Source: Escherichia coli
GTDB lineage: Bacteria; Pseudomonadota; Gammaproteobacteria; Enterobacterales; Enterobacteriaceae
Strand: one strand, 5' to 3'
DNA: 64,000 nt
Assembly (NCBI RefSeq): GCF_016026235.1
Contig: NZ_CP065613.1
The notes below the pieces were generated by a model that had not been told where the DNA came from, ran no database searches, and worked only from the letters and a program-made list of their open reading frames with translations. Within the stretch, counting starts at the first letter, position 1. Every line of letters begins with the position of its first letter. This document shows, piece after piece, positions 15,612-55,830 of this stretch. The translations under genes and the position numbers were made by a program.

Positions 15612-16083
15612 TCATAAATCTGTTTGAGTGTTGCGATGGGTAGTGCAAGTTCGATATCTCCGCAATTTACAGTCCGATGAAGGAAAATGAATATCCATAA
15701 AAAATATATCGGTTTATCCTGGCGTATATACCTACTTCGACGTATTTCCAATAGTTGCTAATTAAAGGCAGGTCATTATTATTCACTCTGAATAATGAAT
15801 TATTCACTGTCCGCAGAGTAAGAAATATAACTTAGGTATCTATTTAATGACTTGCACAAAAAGCTAAATTTTCACCCATAAATAAAAATATAATCCCGCG
15901 CCCAACCACCTGATGAGTGGCTACAGGCACTGGATATATTAGGTGGCGGTGTACTTTCTTACATAAAGGTATTTCCTTTTCTGCGGAAAAGGAAACCGGG
16001 AAATCCCCGGTTTTTCTGACAAGCAGACGCCATTATTTGTGTCTGCCTATGTTCGTTAATTCGTTCATCAGGAAATTATCTCA

Positions 16084-19000
16084 ATGTCACGTTATAAAAC
16101 AGGTCATAAACAACCACGATTTCGTTATTCAGTTCTGGCCCGCTGCGTGGCGTGGGCAAATATCTCTGTTCAGGTTCTTTTTCCACTCGCTGTCACCTTT
16201 ACCCCAGTAATGGCGGCACGTGCGCAGCATGCGGTTCAGCCACGGTTGAGCATGGGAAATACCATGGTAACTGCTGATAATAATGTGGAGAAAAATGTCG
16301 CGTCGTTTGCCGCAAATGCCGGGACATTTTTAAGCAGTCAGCCAGATAGCGATGCGACACGTAATTTTATTACCGGAATGGCCACCGCTAAAGCTAACCA
16401 GGAAATACAGGAGTGGCTCGGGAAATATGGTACAGCGCGCGTCAAACTGAATGTCGATAAAGATTTCTCGCTGAAGGATTCTTCGCTGGAAATGCTTTAT
16501 CCGATTTATGATACGCCGACAAATATGTTGTTCACTCAGGGGGCAATACATCGTACAGACGATCGTACTCAGTCAAATATTGGTTTTGGCTGGCGTCATT
16601 TTTCAGGAAATGACTGGATGGCGGGGGTGAACACCTTTATCGACCATGATTTATCCCGTAGTCATACCCGCATTGGTGTTGGTGCGGAATACTGGCGCGA
16701 TTATCTGAAACTGAGCGCCAATGGTTATATTCGGGCTTCTGGCTGGAAAAAATCGCCGGATATTGAGGATTATCAGGAACGCCCGGCGAATGGTTGGGAT
16801 ATCCGCGCAGAGGGCTATTTACCTGCCTGGCCGCAGCTTGGCGCAAGCCTGATGTATGAACAGTATTATGGCGATGAAGTCGGGCTGTTTGGTAAAGATA
16901 AGCGCCAGAAAGACCCGCATGCGATTTCTGCCGAGGTGACCTATACGCCAGTGCCTCTTCTGACACTGAGCGCTGGGCATAAGCAGGGCAAGAGCGGTGA
17001 GAATGACACTCGCTTTGGCCTGGAAGTTAACTACCGAATTGGCGAACCTTTGGCGAAACAACTCGATACGGATAGCATTCGCGAGCGTCGGGTACTGGCA
17101 GGCAGCCGCTATGACCTGGTTGAGCGTAATAACAACATCGTTCTTGAGTACCGCAAATCTGAAGTGATCCGTATTGCTCTGCCTGAGCGTATTGAAGGTA
17201 AGGGCGGTCAGACACTTTCCCTCGGGCTTGTGGTCAGCAAAGCAACTCACGGACTGAAAAATGTGCAGTGGGAAGCGCCGTCATTACTGGCTGAAGGTGG
17301 CAAAATTACCGGTCAGGGTAGTCAGTGGCAAGTAACGCTCCCGGCTTATCGTCCAGGCAAAGACAATTATTATGCGATTTCTGCGGTTGCCTACGATAAC
17401 AAAGGCAATACCTCAAAACGCGTGCAGACAGAGGTGGTCATTACCGGAGCTGGTATGAGCGCCGATCGCACGGCGTTAACGCTTGACGGTCAGAGCCGTA
17501 TTCAAATGCTTGCTAACGGTAATGAGCAAAAACCGCTGGTGCTGTCTCTGCGCGACGCCGAGGGCCAGCCAGTCACGGGCATGAAAGATCAGATCAAGAC
17601 TGAACTAACTTTCAAACCGGCTGGAAATATTGTGACTCGTTCCCTGAAGGCCACTAAATCACAGGCAAAGCCAACACTGGGTGAGTTCACCGAAACTGAA
17701 GCAGGGGTGTATCAGTCTGTCTTTACTACCGGAACGCAGTCAGGTGAGGCAACGATTACTGTTAGCGTTGATGGCATGAGCAAAACCGTCACTGCAGAAC
17801 TGCGGGCCACGATGATGGATGTGGCAAACTCCACCCTGAGCGCTAACGAGCCGTCAGGTGACGTGGTTGCTGATGGTCAGCAAGCCTATACGTTGACGTT
17901 GACTGCGGTGGACTCCGAGGGTAATCCGGTGACGGGAGAAGCCAGCCGCTTGCGATTTGTTCCGCAAGACACTAATGGTGTAACCGTTGGTGCCATTTCG
18001 GAAATAAAACCAGGCGTTTACAGCGCCACGGTTTCTTCGACCCGTGCCGGAAACGTTGTTGTGCGTGCTTTCAGCGAGCAGTATCAGCTGGGCACATTAC
18101 AACAAACGCTGAAGTTTGTTGCCGGGCCGCTTGATGCAGCACATTCGTCCATCACCCTGAATCCTGATAAACCGGTGGTTGGGGGTACAGTTACGGCAAT
18201 CTGGACGGTAAAAGATGCCTATGACAACCCTGTGACCAGCCTCACGCCGGAAGCGCCGTCATTAGCGGGTGCCGCTGCTGAAGGTTCTACGGCATCGGGC
18301 TGGACAAATAATGGTGATGGGACGTGGACTGCGCAGATTACTCTCGGCTCTACGGCGGGTGAATTAGAAGTTATGCCGAAGCTAAATGGACAGAATGCGG
18401 CAGCAAATGCGGCAAAAGTAACCGTGGTGGCTGATGCGTTATCTTCAAACCAGTCGAAAGTCTCTGTCGCAGAAGACCACGTAAAAGCCGGCGAAAGCAC
18501 AACCGTGACGCTGGTGGCGAAAGATGCGCATGGCAACGCTATCAGTGGTCTTGCGTTGTCGGCAAGTTTGACGGGGACCGCCTCTGAAGGGGCGACCGTT
18601 TCCAGTTGGACCGAAAAAGGTGACGGTTCCTATGTTGCTACGTTGACTACAGGCGGAAAGACGGGCGAGCTTCGCGTCATGCCGCTCTTCAACGGCCAGC
18701 CAGCAGCCACCGAAGCCGCGCAGTTGACGGTCATCGCTGGGGAGATGTCATCAGCGAACTCTACGCTTGTTGCGGACAATAAGGCTCCGACCGTCAAAAC
18801 GACGACGGAACTCACCTTCACCGTGAAGGATGCGTACGGGAACCCGGTCACCGGGCTGAAGCCAGATGCACCAGTGTTTAGCGGTGCCGCCAGCACGGGG
18901 AGTGAGCGTCCTTCAGCAGGAAACTGGACAGAGAAAGGTAATGGGGTCTACGTGGCGACCTTAACGCTGGGATCTGCCGCGGGTCAGTTGTCTGTGATGC

Positions 19001-20340
19001 CGCGAGTGAACGGCCAAAATGCCGTTGCTCAGCCACTGGTGCTGAACGTTGCAGGTGACGCATCTAAGGCTGAGATTCGTGATATGACAGTGAAGGTTAA
19101 TAACCAACTGGCTAATGGACAGTCTGCTAACCAGATAACCCTGACCGTCGTGGACAGCTATGGTAATCCGTTGCAGGGGCAAGAAGTTACGCTGACTCTG
19201 CCGAAAGGTGTGACCAGCAAGACGGGGAATACGGTAACAACCGATGCGGCAGGTAAAGCCGACATTGAGCTGATGTCAACGGTTGCGGGAGAACACAATA
19301 TTTCCGCTTCGGTGAATGGTGCTCAGAAGACGGTCACGGTGAAATTCAAGGCGGATTTCAGTACCGGTCAGGCGACCCTGGAGGTTGATGGCAGCACGCC
19401 AAAAGTGGCAAACGACAATGATGCCTTTACGCTGACGGCAACGGTTAAGGATCAATACGGCAACCTTCTGCCTGGCGCTGTGGTCGTCTTTAATCTGCCT
19501 CGGGGCGTCAAACCGCTTGCAGACGGTAATATCATGGTGAACGCCGACAAGGAGGGTAAAGCGGAACTGAAAGTGGTCTCCGTGACTGCCGGAACGTATG
19601 AGATCACGGCGTCGGCAGGAAATGACCAGCCTTCAAATGCGCAGTCTGTAACGTTTGTGGCCGATAAGACTACGGCGACCATCTCCAGTATTGAGGTGAT
19701 TGGCAACCGTGCAGTGGCGGATGGCAAAACCAAACAGACGTATAAAGTTACGGTGACTGATGCCAATAACAACCTGTTGAAGGATAGCGACGTGACGCTG
19801 ACTGCCAGCTCGGAAAATTTAGTTCTGGATCCTAAAGGGACGGCGAAAACTAATGAGCAAGGACAGGCTGTTTTCACCGGCTCTACCACTATCGCAGCGA
19901 CATATACACTCACGGCGAAAGTGGAACAGGCCAACGGTCAGGTATCGACGAAAACTGCTGAATCTAAATTCGTCGCGGATGATAAAAACGCGGTGCTCGC
20001 CGCATCTCCAGAACGTGTAGATTCTCTGGTGGCGGACGGGAAGACTACTGCAACAATGACGGTTACCCTGATGGCGGGAGTCAATCCCGTAGGAGGAAGT
20101 ATGTGGGTCGACATTGAGGCTCCGGAAGGAGTGACGGAGAAGGATTATCAATTCCTGCCGTCGAAGGCTGACCATTTCTCAGGTGGGAAAATCACGCGTA
20201 CATTTAGTACCAGCAAGCCAGGTGTCTATACGTTCACATTCAACGTACTGACGTATGGCGGGTACGAAATGGCGCCTGTGAAGGTGACAATTAACGCCGT
20301 TGCTGCAGAGACTGAAAATGGCGAGGAGGAGATGCCATAA
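16084..20340 (+). CDS. eaeH: Intimin/invasin-family adhesin EaeH (FdeC), intact, 1418 aa
   Basis: N-terminal inverse-autotransporter beta-barrel region followed by many Big (bacterial Ig-like) repeats; position between ykgM side and ykgA. Confidence 0.85.
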   Translation: MSRYKTGHKQPRFRYSVLARCVAWANISVQVLFPLAVTFTPVMAARAQHAVQPRLSMGNTMVTADNNVEKNVASFAANAGTFLSSQPDSDATRNFITGMATAKANQEIQEWLGKYGTARVKLNVDKDFSLKDSSLEMLYPIYDTPTNMLFTQGAIHRTDDRTQSNIGFGWRHFSGNDWMAGVNTFIDHDLSRSHTRIGVGAEYWRDYLKLSANGYIRASGWKKSPDIEDYQERPANGWDIRAEGYLPAWPQLGASLMYEQYYGDEVGLFGKDKRQKDPHAISAEVTYTPVPLLTLSAGHKQGKSGENDTRFGLEVNYRIGEPLAKQLDTDSIRERRVLAGSRYDLVERNNNIVLEYRKSEVIRIALPERIEGKGGQTLSLGLVVSKATHGLKNVQWEAPSLLAEGGKITGQGSQWQVTLPAYRPGKDNYYAISAVAYDNKGNTSKRVQTEVVITGAGMSADRTALTLDGQSRIQMLANGNEQKPLVLSLRDAEGQPVTGMKDQIKTELTFKPAGNIVTRSLKATKSQAKPTLGEFTETEAGVYQSVFTTGTQSGEATITVSVDGMSKTVTAELRATMMDVANSTLSANEPSGDVVADGQQAYTLTLTAVDSEGNPVTGEASRLRFVPQDTNGVTVGAISEIKPGVYSATVSSTRAGNVVVRAFSEQYQLGTLQQTLKFVAGPLDAAHSSITLNPDKPVVGGTVTAIWTVKDAYDNPVTSLTPEAPSLAGAAAEGSTASGWTNNGDGTWTAQITLGSTAGELEVMPKLNGQNAAANAAKVTVVADALSSNQSKVSVAEDHVKAGESTTVTLVAKDAHGNAISGLALSASLTGTASEGATVSSWTEKGDGSYVATLTTGGKTGELRVMPLFNGQPAATEAAQLTVIAGEMSSANSTLVADNKAPTVKTTTELTFTVKDAYGNPVTGLKPDAPVFSGAASTGSERPSAGNWTEKGNGVYVATLTLGSAAGQLSVMPRVNGQNAVAQPLVLNVAGDASKAEIRDMTVKVNNQLANGQSANQITLTVVDSYGNPLQGQEVTLTLPKGVTSKTGNTVTTDAAGKADIELMSTVAGEHNISASVNGAQKTVTVKFKADFSTGQATLEVDGSTPKVANDNDAFTLTATVKDQYGNLLPGAVVVFNLPRGVKPLADGNIMVNADKEGKAELKVVSVTAGTYEITASAGNDQPSNAQSVTFVADKTTATISSIEVIGNRAVADGKTKQTYKVTVTDANNNLLKDSDVTLTASSENLVLDPKGTAKTNEQGQAVFTGSTTIAATYTLTAKVEQANGQVSTKTAESKFVADDKNAVLAASPERVDSLVADGKTTATMTVTLMAGVNPVGGSMWVDIEAPEGVTEKDYQFLPSKADHFSGGKITRTFSTSKPGVYTFTFNVLTYGGYEMAPVKVTINAVAAETENGEEEMP

Positions 20341-20415
20341 TTTGAATAGTATGAAAGTTACGATCTAATAAAGAATAATGGTGTTGAAATATTCAACGCC
20401 ATTATTCACTGAATA

Positions 20416-20451
20416 CCTTGCCTGATACTGATTAAATAGTATCAGGCAAGG
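20416..20451. terminator. Hairpin (14-bp perfect stem, 8-nt loop) between convergent eaeH and ykgA-like gene; likely bidirectional terminator
   Basis: CCTTGCCTGATACT / loop GATTAAAT / AGTATCAGGCAAGG read directly. Confidence 0.5.
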
Positions 20452-20479
20452 ATAAAACTCAATAAGAGATAGTGACCAA

Positions 20480-21364
20480 CTAAACCGGACGAACGGGAAT
20501 AAAAATTTCGCAAACAACATCATTGCCATCCTTTTCTACGAAATCTTCATTGTAATAAAAGCGCTCAATATCGCTGCCGTTCACTCTGGCTAACCCCCTG
20601 GCAGGCAACTCTATCAGATAGATGTTACGCACCCAGTCAGGATAATTTTCCCAGTTTCCTTCATAACGGAAAGAGGCATAAAGTCCTCGGGTCGTTGTCC
20701 ACTCTTTTGGCATGTCAGCATATTCACATACCGTACCAGCAAAAGTTTCAACCGTGAGCAAATCGACCGATTTTGTTGACGGTTCAAACGTGGAGACGAA
20801 ATAGATATCCGTCTTATAATTCTTCATACATCTGGCTAAATGATGACGTCGTAGTTTGACTTCTTCATCCGGTGATTTATTCGACACCTCAATGTCATAT
20901 TTAAATGAGTTGCCAAAAATAGGTGTCTCAGGAAAGTTGACTAATCGACACTCCGTCTTTTGCTGTTGACGTATTAAAAAAGAAGGGAAGATATTTGCGA
21001 GATCCCAATAATCACGGTGGCGGTATTCACGGGGAGAGCAGCCGAATAACTTTTTAAATTCGCGGCTGAATGACTGCTGTGAATCAAAATGCAAAGAGAG
21101 TGCAATATCAAGCATAGATTTCGCGGTGAGCCGGACAAGAATGGCGGCACGGCAAAGCCTTCGTTTGCGAATGTATTCTCCCAAAGGCACATGCATGAAA
21201 TTTCGGAACAGAAGCTGGATGTTGCGTCTGCTGTAGCCAGATTTCTGTGCGATATCTTCGATTGAAATAGGGTGCTCAAGATTGCACTCAATCCACTCCA
21301 GGAGCTGCTGTAGAATCTTCTGCCTGATCATCACATTCTCCATTAATTCTTCGTCATATCGCAC
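20480..21364 (-). CDS. ykgA: AraC/XylS-family transcriptional regulator (294 aa), ykgA-like
   Basis: N-terminal AraC-type double HTH; C-terminal effector domain; synteny next to eaeH. Confidence 0.7.
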   Translation of the reverse strand: MRYDEELMENVMIRQKILQQLLEWIECNLEHPISIEDIAQKSGYSRRNIQLLFRNFMHVPLGEYIRKRRLCRAAILVRLTAKSMLDIALSLHFDSQQSFSREFKKLFGCSPREYRHRDYWDLANIFPSFLIRQQQKTECRLVNFPETPIFGNSFKYDIEVSNKSPDEEVKLRRHHLARCMKNYKTDIYFVSTFEPSTKSVDLLTVETFAGTVCEYADMPKEWTTTRGLYASFRYEGNWENYPDWVRNIYLIELPARGLARVNGSDIERFYYNEDFVEKDGNDVVCEIFIPVRPV

Positions 21365-21577
21365 ATTTTCGTTATGCCCTGGGCCCTAGTGTATCAAAAA
21401 CAGCAAGTCCGAAGGCAAAAGCACTGGTAGCGTCTGCTTCATTGCCCAAAAAATAGAGAGGTTTCAGTCCTACATTATTAATGAATTTTTTGCATAAGTG
21501 ATATCAAAATCCACATACTAATTTGAGGTTACGTTTTAACGTAGACTCATTGTTCATGCCTAATGGAGGGACTGACA

Positions 21578-22447
21578 GTGGAATTTTCCGTATTAAGTAA
21601 CAATCTGAAAATGCCGATGATGGGATTTGGTGTTTTTCAGGTTACCGATAAAAACGTGTGCAAACAGTCAGTGTTGAACGCTATCCGCACGGGGTATCGA
21701 CTCATCGACACTGCAGCGGTATACGGTAATGAAGATGCTGTCGGTGAAGCCGTTCGTGAAGCCATATCCGAAGGTTTATGTACCCGAGAAGAGTTATTTA
21801 TAACGTCTAAATTGTGGGTGCAGGATATGTTGAATCAGGATACGGCAGCAGCAGGTATTGAAGCATCATTAAAAAAATCGGGACTAGAATACTTCGACCT
21901 CTATTTATTGCATCAGGCTATGCGCGATTATTTCAGTGCGTGGCGTGCACTCGAAGATGCCTATGAAGAGGGCAAATTAAAAGCGATTGGGGTTTCCAAT
22001 TTCTATCCTCATGTTCTGGCGAACTTTTGTGAAACGGTAAGAGTTAAACCGATGGTCAACTAGGTCGAGTTGCATCCCTATTTTGCCCAACCAGAGGCGC
22101 TGGCAACCATGAAGTATTATAACGTGCAGCCTGAAGCATGGGCTCCGTTAGGTGGTGGACGACATAAACCCTTTGAAAATAATCTGCTTCAGAGTATTGC
22201 AGATGCCCATCAAAAATCGATTTTTCAAGTCATTCTGCGTTGGAATATTCAACGGGGAGTGGTCGTTATTCCGAAATCGACACATCAACAGCGTATCGAA
22301 GAAAATTTCGCTATCTGGGATTTCTCACTGACAGAGAAAGAAATGGCACAAATTAGTTCGCTTGATTTGGGTTATGTTGGGGAGTCGGTAAAACATTTTA
22401 ATCCTGAATTTGTTCGTGGTTGTCTTGCTGTAAAAATACATGATTGA
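21578..22447 (+). pseudogene. Aldo-keto reductase interrupted by in-frame amber codon (TAG at 22061..22063)
   Basis: Two ORFs in same frame (21563..22063 and 22070..22447) separated only by TAG; paralog at 14667..15518 has Gln (VNQVEV) where this has stop (VN*VEL); GTG 21578 with GGAGG RBS. Confidence 0.7.
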
Positions 22448-47000: not shown

Positions 47001-47986
47001 ATGACTTGCGACCGGAGGCGAGTAGCTACATTGCGAACCTTGCAGCAGCGAATACCATATTCACCACGCGTCTGCATGAGCGTCTGGGTAATACGTACTA
47101 TACCGACATGGTGACGGGTGAGCAGAAACAAACCACTATGTGGATGCGCCATGAAGGTGGTCATAATAAATGGCGTGATGGCAGCGGCCAGCTGAAAACC
47201 CAAAGCAATCGCTATGTTCTGCAACTGGGAGGCGATGTCGCGCAGTGGAGCCAAAACGGCAGCGACAGCTGGCATGTTGGGGTCATGGCGGGATATGGCA
47301 ACAGCGACAGCAAAACCATTTCCTCGCGAACCGGTTATCGTGCAAAAGCGAGTGTGAACGGATATAGCACCGGCCTCTATGCCACCTGGTATGCCGATGA
47401 CGAGTCGCGTAATGGCGCGTATCTCGACAGTTGGGCGCAGTACAGCTGGTTTGATAACACAGTGAAAGGGGATGACTTACAAAGTGAATCCTATAAATCA
47501 AAAGGATTTACCGCTTCACTGGAAGCTGGATACAAACACAAATTAGCTGAATTTAATGGCAGCCAGGGAACGCGTAATGAATGGTATGTTCAGCCGCAAG
47601 CACAGGTTACCTGGATGGGAGTCAAAGCCGATAAGCACCGCGAAAGCAACGGAACCCTCGTTCATAGCAACGGTGATGGCAATGTTCAAACCCGACTTGG
47701 CGTAAAAACCTGGCTGAAGAGCCACCATAAAATGGATGACGGTAAATCCCGCGAGTTCCAGCCGTTTGTAGAAGTGAACTGGCTGCATAACAGTAAGGAT
47801 TTCAGCACCAGTATGGATGGCGTGTCCGTCACTCAGGATGGAGCCCGAAATATTGCTGAGATAAAAACCGGGGTGGAAGGACAGCTAAATGCCAACCTGA
47901 ATGTCTGGGGGAATGTGGGCGTTCAGGTTGCCGATAGGGGATATAATGACACCTCTGCAATGGTTGGCATTAAGTGGCAATTCTGA
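44003..47986 (+). CDS. Large AIDA-I-type autotransporter adhesin, EhaA-like (1327 aa from MNKIYRLKWN start)
   Basis: Extended signal peptide MNKIYRLKWNRSRNCWSVCSELG; repetitive passenger; Pro-rich linker PEPDPMPNPEPNPNPEPNPNPTPTPGP (about 46900..46985); C-terminal beta-barrel ending ...GIKWQF. Confidence 0.85.
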   Translation: MNKIYRLKWNRSRNCWSVCSELGSRVKGKKSRAVLISAISLYSSLALSKDVTVSEDHTAVFGKDNQTIDYRISVTDNANLVINATDTSRPRLTLASGGGLDITGGKVTINGPLNFLLKGTGFLNVSNAGSELYADDLYESNSGMRHDQGYFNVSNGGKIHVKGTSRLTYTQGNVSGEGSQVNAGTFFMGVYGGYGGNQFLSVNNGGEVNAREHISLGYYDQRSDTTLVVSDGGKISAPKISLSTNSELALGAQEGSAAKAAGIIDAEKIEFVWAKTSDKKITLNHTDKNATISADIVSGSEGLGYINALNGTTYLTGDNSAFSGKVKIEQNGALGITQNIGTAEINNRGKLHLKADDSMTFANKISGNGTISIDSGTVALTGNNYAFSGYIDVASGAVAVISEDKNIGRADLDVDGKLQINANKDWVFDNDLQGRGIVEINMGNHEFSFDEFAYTDWFQGSLAFQNTAFNLEKNAEFLQRGGITAGQGSQVTVGKGAHSISTLGFSGGTVDFGALAAGAQMTEGTVNVSKTLDLRGEGVIQVSDSDVVSSVSRDIDSALSLTEVDDGNSTIKLVDAQGAEVLGDAGNLQLQDKNGQILSSSAQRDIQQNGQKAAVGTYDYRLTSGVNNDGLYIGYGLTQLDLHATDSDALVLSSNGKSENAADLSAKITGSGDLAFSSQKGQTVSLSNKDNDYTGVTDLRSGTLLLNNDNVLGNTHELRLAAETELDMNGHSQTVGTLNGSADSLLSLNGGSLTVTNGGTSTGSLTGSGELNIQGGTLDIAGDNSNLTANVNIANSANVLVSHAQGLGSANVENNGTLALNNSAEKRAAASVNYTLGGNLTNNGTLMTGMSGQQAGNVLVVKGNYHGNNGQLVMNTVLNGDDSVTDKLVVEGDTSGTTAVTVNNAGGTGAKTLNGIELIHVDGKSEGEFVQAGRIVAGAYDYTLARGQGANSGNWYLTSGSDSPELQPEPDPMPNPEPNPNPEPNPNPTPTPGPDLNVDNDLRPEASSYIANLAAANTIFTTRLHERLGNTYYTDMVTGEQKQTTMWMRHEGGHNKWRDGSGQLKTQSNRYVLQLGGDVAQWSQNGSDSWHVGVMAGYGNSDSKTISSRTGYRAKASVNGYSTGLYATWYADDESRNGAYLDSWAQYSWFDNTVKGDDLQSESYKSKGFTASLEAGYKHKLAEFNGSQGTRNEWYVQPQAQVTWMGVKADKHRESNGTLVHSNGDGNVQTRLGVKTWLKSHHKMDDGKSREFQPFVEVNWLHNSKDFSTSMDGVSVTQDGARNIAEIKTGVEGQLNANLNVWGNVGVQVADRGYNDTSAMVGIKWQF

Positions 47987-55501: not shown

Positions 55502-55514
55502 CCTACATGTTCAT

Positions 55515-55785
55515 GCCGGATGCGGCGTGAACGCCTTATCCGGCCTACGAATGGCGCGAGAATCTGTAGGCCTGATAAGCGTAGCGCATCAGGCATTTGT
55601 CACCATTGCCGGATGCGGCGTGAACGCCTTATCCGGCCTACGAGTGGCGCAAGAATTTGTAGGCCTGATAAGCGTAGCGCATCAGGCATTTGTCACCATT
55701 GCCGGATGCGGCGTGAACGCCTTATCCGGCCTACGAATGGCACGAGAATTTGTAGGCCTGATAAGCGTAGCGTATCAGGCAATTT
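55515..55785. repeat. REP/BIME cluster: three tandem ~93-bp units of palindromic REP sequences
   Basis: Unit GCCGGATGCGGCGTGAACGCCTTATCCGGCCTACGAATGG...GCCTGATAAGCGTAGCGCATCAGGCATTTGTCACCATT starting at 55515, 55608, 55701. Confidence 0.85.
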
Positions 55786-55830
55786 GGCGTTGGTCATAAC
55801 CCCATCACCCTCTGTAGCGGACATAACAAC

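Follow-up and report, generated by a model that had tools for sequence, protein, structure and literature searches.

Does the 64,000-nucleotide stretch of Escherichia coli DNA analysed here (the window; contig NZ_CP065613.1) carry an intact copy of the adhesin gene fdeC (eaeH), which is broken in K-12, and what would an intact copy say about the strain that it came from? The first part can be answered with high confidence: the window contains an intact chromosomal fdeC in its usual E. coli position, encoding a prototypical FdeC-type inverse autotransporter (type Ve secretion) adhesin. The observation of an intact gene is correct but ordinary, and was already known. The difference from K-12 has been known in print ever since eaeH was discovered, by subtractive hybridization against MG1655 (PMC4309559); the K-12 pseudogene has been reported (PMC3324786), as has the contrast between the intact and K-12 alleles (Nesta 2012). 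The finding matters mainly for annotating the gene correctly. FdeC/EaeH has already been studied as an adhesin and as a vaccine antigen, and the intact copy indicates that the strain retains a common colonization factor that is missing from K-12.

Reading frame, identity and frequency of fdeC

The ORF listing of the window gives a single frame of 1418 amino acids with an ATG start.

16084..20340, plus strand: fdeC (eaeH) coding sequence, intact, 1418 amino acids plus stop (ORF listing, translation, alignments, and identical protein at NCBI)

Translation of 16084-20340 contains only one stop, which is terminal, in agreement with the one uninterrupted frame described in the initial annotation; a random run of 1418 codons without a stop has a computed probability of about 3e-30. 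The GC content of fdeC is 0.525, against 0.489 in the window as a whole. The initial annotation had proposed alignment with FdeC as the means of finding frameshifts, and none was found: the window protein aligns without gaps, end to end, with two intact RefSeq-annotated FdeC alleles of 1418 amino acids (98.5 and 97.5% amino acid identity; lowest identity over 50 residues, 0.82-0.90), and its start codon is the same as that of RefSeq FdeC. A hidden frameshift or a mis-called start is ruled out by this gapless alignment and common start.

The 1415-residue allele of the urine isolate BH100N is 93.8% identical over its full length, differing by a one-residue indel near residue 1311 and by two extra C-terminal residues in the window protein. 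All three values lie above the threshold of about 91% full-length amino acid identity used here for FdeC/EaeH orthologues, which was taken from the range of >91% reported for the FdeC family (PMC3324786). The crystallized FdeC fragment (PDB 4E9L) matches residues 595-1008 of the window protein at about 96% identity. The exact window protein is already at NCBI, named FdeC, and is present on 24 contigs in public data. This RefSeq/NCBI name stands although the NCBIfam matches did not include an FdeC model; only other inverse autotransporter families were matched, all below cut-off. The gene is the same as that for FdeC of ExPEC strain IHE3034 (ECOK1_0290; PDB 4E9L) and EaeH of ETEC strain H10407, and has the same types of flanking genes; the window protein differs from these orthologues in length (1418 residues versus 1416 and 1415) and by ordinary allelic substitutions. 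Nothing in the sequence speaks against the reading of this locus as an intact fdeC.

Allele comparisons give an overall dN/dS of 0.12-0.24 for fdeC, with 0.03-0.10 over residues 1-357 at the barrel end and about 0.35 in the distal passenger, where allelic substitutions concentrate. These ratios, which between old alleles are blind to very recent relaxation, point to purifying selection acting across fdeC alleles, and this signature lends support to the suggestion that the window FdeC is potentially functional.

Of 5426 complete genomes, 4585 contain at least 80% of fdeC. Among the matching records, 60 evenly spaced ones were inspected for intact versus broken copies; fdeC was full length and in a single piece in 52 of them, and in this sample the K-12 stub occurred only in laboratory or K-12-named records. 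Intact fdeC is the species norm in wild E. coli. Because most wild E. coli, commensals included, have an intact copy, it is not a marker of pathotype or virulence; an intact fdeC, being usual in E. coli, rules out the K-12 lineage and carries no information on pathotype (PMC3324786).

Comparison with K-12 and with the nearest relative

In MG1655, eaeH (b0297) is annotated as a pseudogene of 888 nt (314357-315244) that abuts IS3A (315229-316483), followed by a ykgA pseudogene; the account of a truncated K-12 gene followed by IS3, given in the initial annotation, is thus accurate. In a blastn comparison, the K-12-type locus matches the window as far as 16959 and next from 20677.

16960..20676, no strand: segment absent from K-12, with IS3A in its place (blastn of the K-12-type locus, junctions, and MG1655 annotation)

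The 3,717 bp missing from K-12 at the IS3 site take in fdeC from codon 293 to codon 1418, then the spacer, and finally 197 bp at the end of ykgA, and the K-12 IS3 junction sequences contain no target-site duplication. A simple insertion of IS3 in K-12 is ruled out by the missing 3,717 bp and by junctions without a duplication; the sequences argue instead for a 3.7-kb deletion at the K-12 IS3, which has cut ykgA short as well. This IS3-associated deletion removed codons 293-1418, together with the 3' end of ykgA, from the K-12 lineage, so the window represents the ancestral, species-typical state. The remaining part of MG1655 eaeH resembles the window gene closely, with 99.3% amino acid identity over the first 292 codons, and the upstream intergenic region is common to both from window position 15533. 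Window stretches 9229-15532 and 21594-22318 are also lacking in the K-12-type locus; together with the K-12 breakpoints at fdeC, they confirm that the source strain is not K-12.

The nearest relative among RefSeq complete genomes, FDAARGOS_943, has about 99.9% nucleotide identity across the whole window and has the IS2 insertion in hyxR in common with it, but its fdeC locus carries three IS insertions at sites that are empty in the window. ISEc60 lies at window position 15998-16008, 76-86 nt upstream of the fdeC ATG, with the target duplication GGGAAATCCCC, while IS1 and IS600 interrupt the gene itself, near codon 63 and at codon 909 respectively; the three insertions fall within about 2.8 kb, and the target duplications are clean for ISEc60 and IS600. 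Because of these three insertions, fdeC of FDAARGOS_943 is annotated as pseudogene fragments.

Several lesions are found near fdeC in the window itself: the adjacent aldo/keto reductase gene contains a nonsense codon, a LysR gene and a ykgL-like ORF have 1-nt deletions, hyxR carries the IS2, and ipbA is split.

From the lesions in neighboring genes and the IS-disrupted fdeC of the nearest relative, it follows that selection on the fdeC locus may be relaxed in this lineage. The window gene might then be intact but silent or of no further use, decaying in its lineage and heading toward the disrupted state of FDAARGOS_943, as the insertions upstream of and within that allele and the damaged window neighbors would suggest. 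The window fdeC, however, has no lesion, its upstream region lacks indels in alignment with strain NCTC9112, this very allele is found on 24 contigs, and comparisons with other alleles carry the signature of purifying selection (in which very recent relaxation would be undetectable); decay is considered unlikely.

15519..16083, no strand: AT-rich intergenic region 5' of fdeC, presumed promoter/regulatory region (565 bp, GC 0.386)

A related proposal, which is doubtful, is that the three IS hits in FDAARGOS_943 reflect selection against FdeC, and not drift, in an IS-expanding and possibly host-restricted sublineage, as a case of pathoadaptive adhesin loss; if true, the source strain and FDAARGOS_943, which form a natural near-isogenic pair, would be a ready system for testing such loss. 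That fdeC appears intact through an assembly or consensus artifact masking a real frameshift is extremely improbable: two neighboring genes differ by single nucleotides in short runs of G from those of relatives, a pattern that could come from sequencing error and that attests to indel-type differences in this sequence, but errors would break an ORF and not mend it, and the fdeC frame follows those of independent genomes codon by codon and encodes a protein found identically on 24 public contigs.

Domain architecture and predicted function

The intact fdeC of the window encodes the following segments.

16084..16221, plus strand: presumed extended Sec signal peptide, residues 1-46
16309..17133, plus strand: inverse-autotransporter beta-barrel, residues 76-350, outer-membrane anchor and translocation pore (PF11924, 4E1T, 4E1S)
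17155..17463, plus strand: barrel-proximal D00-like Ig-like domain, residues 358 to ~460
17476..20325, plus strand: nine tandem Big_1/Invasin_D3-type Ig-like repeats, residues 465-1414, extended passenger rod (iterated self-HMM, Pfam)

The presumed signal peptide was read by eye: its N-region is basic, its core is hydrophobic, and near residue 46 there is an AxA motif (AARA followed by Q); the N-terminus is nearly identical to those of RefSeq FdeC proteins. Residues 76-350 match the Pfam family IAT_beta (PF11924) at 364 bits against a cut-off of 22.3 (E=7.6e-109; profile positions 3-279 of 279), and the barrel also matches the solved structures of invasin (4E1T, E=4.8e-82) and intimin (4E1S, E=6e-71). 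The protein thus has the N-terminal 12-stranded barrel of inverse autotransporters (type Ve). Together with the 93.8-98.5% identity to RefSeq FdeC and about 96% identity to 4E9L, the IAT_beta score upholds the earlier assignment to the intimin/invasin family and to eaeH (fdeC).

C-terminal to the barrel, as in type Ve passengers, are tandem Big domains. The D00-like domain was recognized by the match of an intimin fragment (6TQD) to residues 358-479 (E=9.9e-12). The iterated self-HMM places repeats 1-5 at residues 465-573, 583-675, 688-778, 791-880, and 893-984, and repeats 6-9 at residues 1001-1088, 1097-1189, 1203-1294, and 1308-1414; Pfam likewise gives nine Invasin_D3/Big_1 stretches. The total of 10 Ig-like domains (nine repeats and the D00-like domain) agrees with the 10 Big domains counted in FdeC (PMC4943183). 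In the Pfam search the protein had neither a LysM domain nor an Intimin_C or other lectin-like domain at its C-terminus, and the last domain is a Big_1-type repeat in the self-HMM. This is the FdeC-type architecture, and it resembles that of IHE3034 FdeC and H10407 EaeH in having a presumed signal peptide, an inverse autotransporter barrel, and about 10 Big domains without LysM or a lectin cap.

The type Ve inverse-autotransporter superfamily also includes intimin (EaeA) and Yersinia invasin (InvA), which have a homologous barrel and Ig-like passenger domains; the window FdeC differs from them in lacking LysM and the C-terminal lectin-like receptor-binding domain and in having more Ig repeats. 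The possibility that the protein is intimin or invasin proper, a Tir- or integrin-binding adhesin and not FdeC, draws on this common barrel and Ig-like domains and on a score of 390 bits to NCBIfam intimin_all (NF033627), but it is effectively refuted, as that score is far below the cut-off of 1400 and covers residues 61-480 only, another Big_1-type repeat stands where the lectin-like domain would be, and the match to invasin 1CWV is confined to one or two Ig domains (residues 1008-1139) and does not provide an InvA D5. With the invasin model NF040980 the score reaches 310, short of the cut-off of 710. The NCBIfam scores, which lie below the respective cut-offs, help to exclude intimin, IatC and SinH.

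For the FdeC of the window, the secretion route, ligands and regulation are predicted from the literature on its orthologues. The presumed N-terminal signal peptide would direct the protein through Sec, and the 12-stranded barrel (residues ~76-350) would then enter the outer membrane with the aid of BAM and TAM; FdeC of CFT073 depends on BAM and TAM for outer-membrane assembly, which TAM enhances, and its passenger is surface exposed (PMC4943183). The C-terminal passenger of about ten Ig-like domains would be threaded out to form a long rod on the cell surface, where it may bind collagens and epithelial cells and promote contact between bacteria. FdeC binds collagen I, III, V and VI and is induced by host contact (PMC3324786), and eaeH is activated by cell contact (PMC4309559); binding to collagen and epithelial cells and induction by host-cell contact are described for the IHE3034 and H10407 orthologues (PMC3324786; PMC4309559). 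Probably the window fdeC stays silent in ordinary culture and is switched on by host contact. Control of fdeC by H-NS and temperature was reportedly described by Easton in 2014.

Flanking regions and the convergent ykgA-like gene

The fdeC stop is separated from that of the next gene by a spacer of 139 bp (20341-20479), and no IS element lies on the 3' side, as the initial annotation had noted. Its placement of an AraC-type ykgA-like gene directly downstream is right as to position, but the gene is convergent, on the minus strand, and is not co-transcribed with fdeC.

20373..20451, no strand: two strong hairpins in the convergent fdeC/ykgA spacer (20373-20407, 16-bp stem; 20416-20451, 15-bp stem; from folding)
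20480..21331, minus strand: ykgA-like regulator, AraC/XylS HTH and GyrI-like ligand-binding domain, Rob-like architecture (Pfam HTH_18, HTH_AraC, GyrI-like)

Consensus scans of 15400-21700 found promoter sites no more numerous than in shuffled sequence, which leaves fdeC with no assigned promoter, and terminator counts not above those of shuffles, with no listed terminator-like site inside the fdeC-ykgA spacer. Folding nevertheless gave a minimum free energy of -52.5 kcal/mol, far below that of shuffles (-19.8 ± 3.0; z = -10.8); the spacer hairpins were missed by the consensus terminator scan because they have no T-run. They may serve as transcription terminators or insulators.

The ykgA-like gene is intact, encoding 283 amino acids from the RefSeq-equivalent start, and is full length relative to NCTC9112. 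Its product scores 194 bits with the NCBIfam RobA model, below the cut-off of 380; it is therefore Rob-like and not Rob itself.

In alignment with NCTC9112 the window forms a single collinear piece of 25 kb, which is free of indels from 13631 to 21388. Around fdeC, the gene order (upstream, an aldo/keto reductase cluster; downstream, ykgA and rclCBA) is the same as in annotated genomes; these flanking genes, like the deposit of the exact sequence as FdeC, add to the case for fdeC identity. The position is thus conserved, being collinear with NCTC9112 and BH100N and in agreement with the published locus, in which fdeC is flanked by regulators and reductase/hydrolase genes (PMC3324786).

Reading frame and identity of fdeC

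The fdeC gene (also named eaeH) is carried in the window as one open reading frame whose translation has only a terminal stop; the chance of a stop-free run this long is about 3e-30. The initial annotation had described one uninterrupted 1418-residue frame, no IS element on its 3' side, and an AraC-type regulator directly beyond it. All of this is borne out: fdeC is followed by a 139-bp spacer, across which it faces the stop codon of the convergent ykgA-like gene.

16084-20340, + strand: fdeC (eaeH), 1418 aa, ATG start, single ORF
20373-20407: hairpin 1, perfect 16-bp stem, between convergent fdeC and ykgA
20416-20451: hairpin 2, perfect 15-bp stem, between convergent fdeC and ykgA
20480-21331, - strand: ykgA-like regulator gene, AraC-type HTH domains and a GyrI-like domain

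Hidden frameshifts were sought by full alignment with other FdeC alleles, and none was found. In global protein alignments the window protein is gapless against the 1418-aa proteins of E. coli PEC399 (98.5% identity) and NCTC9112 (97.5%), both intact in RefSeq. BH100N, a urine isolate, has a 1415-aa allele to which the window protein is 93.8% identical; this alignment contains one single-residue indel, and the C-termini differ by 2 residues. The minimum 50-residue identity across the compared alleles is 0.74-0.90; therefore no stretch of fdeC is concealed in a wrong frame. Against the same three alleles, dN/dS (Nei-Gojobori) for the whole gene is 0.12-0.24; it is 0.03-0.10 across the barrel and presumed signal peptide and about 0.35 for the distal passenger. 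Functional surface proteins are expected to show this pattern, in which the anchor is constrained and the exposed tip varies more.

The protein contains a full-length inverse-autotransporter beta-barrel domain (PF11924, residues 76-350; 364 bits, cut-off 22.3) and nine Invasin_D3/Big_1 stretches, and a Pfam search found neither LysM nor lectin-like domains. Among solved structures, residues 595-1008 match 4E9L, the FdeC crystal fragment (E=2e-248, about 96% identity), the barrel matches the invasin (4E1T) and intimin (4E1S) barrels, and residues 358-479 match the intimin fragment 6TQD. An iterated self-HMM delimits nine Big_1-type repeats within residues 465-1414, the last reaching the C-terminus; counting the barrel-proximal domain, the protein has ten Ig-like domains, as many as are reported for FdeC (PMC4943183). 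NCBIfam matches include no FdeC-specific model, and the protein scores far under the curated cut-offs of the intimin, IatC, Ilp, SinH, and YchO models, so these identities are rejected. Nearly all of about 90 RefSeq records listed are annotated "fdeC: inverse autotransporter adhesin FdeC". The identical 1418-aa sequence is deposited at NCBI under the FdeC name (EFK2889030.1 and others, 24 contigs) and belongs to a 17,949-member cluster at 90% identity.

From this anatomy and published work on orthologues, a mechanism can be proposed in which the presumed N-terminal signal peptide would direct export through Sec, the barrel would be inserted in the outer membrane with the help of BAM and TAM, and the C-terminal passenger would next be exported and fold into a rod composed of about ten Ig-like units. 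TAM dependence has been shown for FdeC of CFT073 (PMC4943183). Recombinant FdeC binds epithelial cells and collagens I, III, V, and VI, and host-cell contact induces FdeC expression (PMC3324786).

The 565-bp intergenic region upstream of fdeC is without indels relative to NCTC9112 and is AT-rich (GC 0.386). To judge by the title of a 2014 study, fdeC is reportedly controlled by H-NS and temperature, with which this composition is compatible. On the 3' side, the spacer hairpins (20373-20451) are unusually stable on folding (z = -10.8) and are putative terminators; they lack a T-run, so by a consensus terminator scan they are not classical intrinsic terminators.

The K-12 allele and the distribution of fdeC

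The initial annotation had set the window gene against a truncated K-12 eaeH followed by IS3. This contrast is upheld by the MG1655 annotation (NC_000913.3), in which eaeH (b0297) is a pseudogene at 314357-315244, IS3A lies at 315229-316483, and ykgA (b0300), ykgQ, and ykgP are also pseudogenes, and by blastn of a K-12-type locus; the two alleles differ in length. Homology to the K-12-type locus covers 15533-16959, gives way to IS3, and resumes from 20677, so 3,717 bp are missing in K-12: fdeC codons 293-1418, the spacer with both hairpins, and 197 bp of the ykgA 3' end. A simple IS3 insertion is rejected by this missing segment and by the lack of a target-site duplication at either IS3 junction; the K-12 loss is instead an IS3-associated deletion. 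Also absent from the K-12-type locus are 21594-22318 and the following block.

9229-15532 (6.3 kb): NADH:flavin oxidoreductase, alpha/beta hydrolase, two LysR regulators, two aldo/keto reductases

The annotated PEC399 locus lacks this block too. NCTC9112 carries it, and BH100N carries at least its fdeC-proximal part. The block is the counterpart of the "reductases and hydrolases" that Nesta et al. (2012; PMC3324786) described for the fdeC cluster.

Intact fdeC is not unusual in E. coli. The gene is matched in 5082 of 5426 complete genomes, and 4585 have 80% or more of its length at a single site. Of 60 matching records sampled at even intervals, 52 contain the gene in one piece at 99% coverage or more, and four, all named as laboratory or K-12 strains, have the 876-nt K-12-type stub. 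According to one published survey, fdeC is carried by about 99% of ExPEC and by about 90-100% of intestinal pathotypes, the commensals HS and SE11 have it at full length, and K-12 strains have only an N-terminal pseudogene (Nesta et al., 2012; PMC3324786). In another, the gene was complete in 84 of 126 genomes, and PCR gave a product of correct size for 83% of the ECOR strains (Goh et al., 2019; PMC6714894). The contrast with K-12 is the founding observation of the gene, as eaeH was first identified by subtractive hybridisation of ETEC H10407 against MG1655 (PMC4309559). The observation of the initial annotation is thus confirmed and its interpretation supported, and intact fdeC is an ordinary, already published trait of non-K-12 E. 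coli, of little interest in itself.

Insertion sequences and decay around fdeC

The nearest relative of the window among RefSeq complete genomes, FDAARGOS_943 (NZ_CP065615.1), is about 99.9% identical to it throughout and shares an IS2 insertion in hyxR, but is IS-laden in the fdeC region. Three insertions lie in or just upstream of its fdeC, corresponding to window 15998-18810.

ISEc60: 76-86 nt upstream of the fdeC ATG, clean 11-bp target duplication GGGAAATCCCC
IS1: about codon 63 of fdeC
IS600: codon 909 of fdeC, clean 3-bp target duplication GAA

The window has empty sites at these positions and therefore keeps the ancestral state of fdeC, lost in this very close relative.

Other genes near fdeC are damaged in the window.

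7535-7725, + strand: ykgL-like small ORF, GGGG-to-GGG deletion near 7608
11600-12525, + strand: LysR regulator gene of the fdeC cluster, 1-nt deletion (GGG to GG) near 12382, premature stop at codon 286 of 308
21578-22447, + strand: aldo/keto reductase gene between ykgA and rclC, CAG-to-TAG nonsense mutation at codon 162 (22061-22063)

The reductase gene is intact (870 nt) in NCTC9112, FDAARGOS_943, and BH100N, whereas K-12 retains only the 129-nt remnant ykgQ. Both 1-nt deletions fall in short G runs and so may be sequencing errors. This decay, with a split ipbA, keeps alive the alternative, to which we assign a low probability, that selection on fdeC itself is relaxed in this lineage.

Other surface-protein and regulatory loci

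The regulator gene hyxR (LuxR family, about 33681-35811) is split by IS2 (transposase 34063-35291, + strand), and the adjoining tyrosine invertase gene ipbA (fimX/hbiF; 35870-36490, - strand) is broken into ORFs of 127 and 52 aa. The hyxB locus (30427-33527, - strand) has an uninterrupted 776-aa ORF with an autotransporter beta-domain and an ORF matching hyxA; in FDAARGOS_943 an IS600/IS66 cluster disrupts hyxA and hyxB. The classical autotransporter adhesin gene ehaA (44003-47986, + strand) is uninterrupted and encodes 1327 aa from the RefSeq start. Between yahG and yahI (55514-55786), a 93-bp unit is tandemly repeated (2.9 copies, 95% match); by eye the units resemble REP/BIME palindromic elements, and FDAARGOS_943 appears to have more copies at this site.
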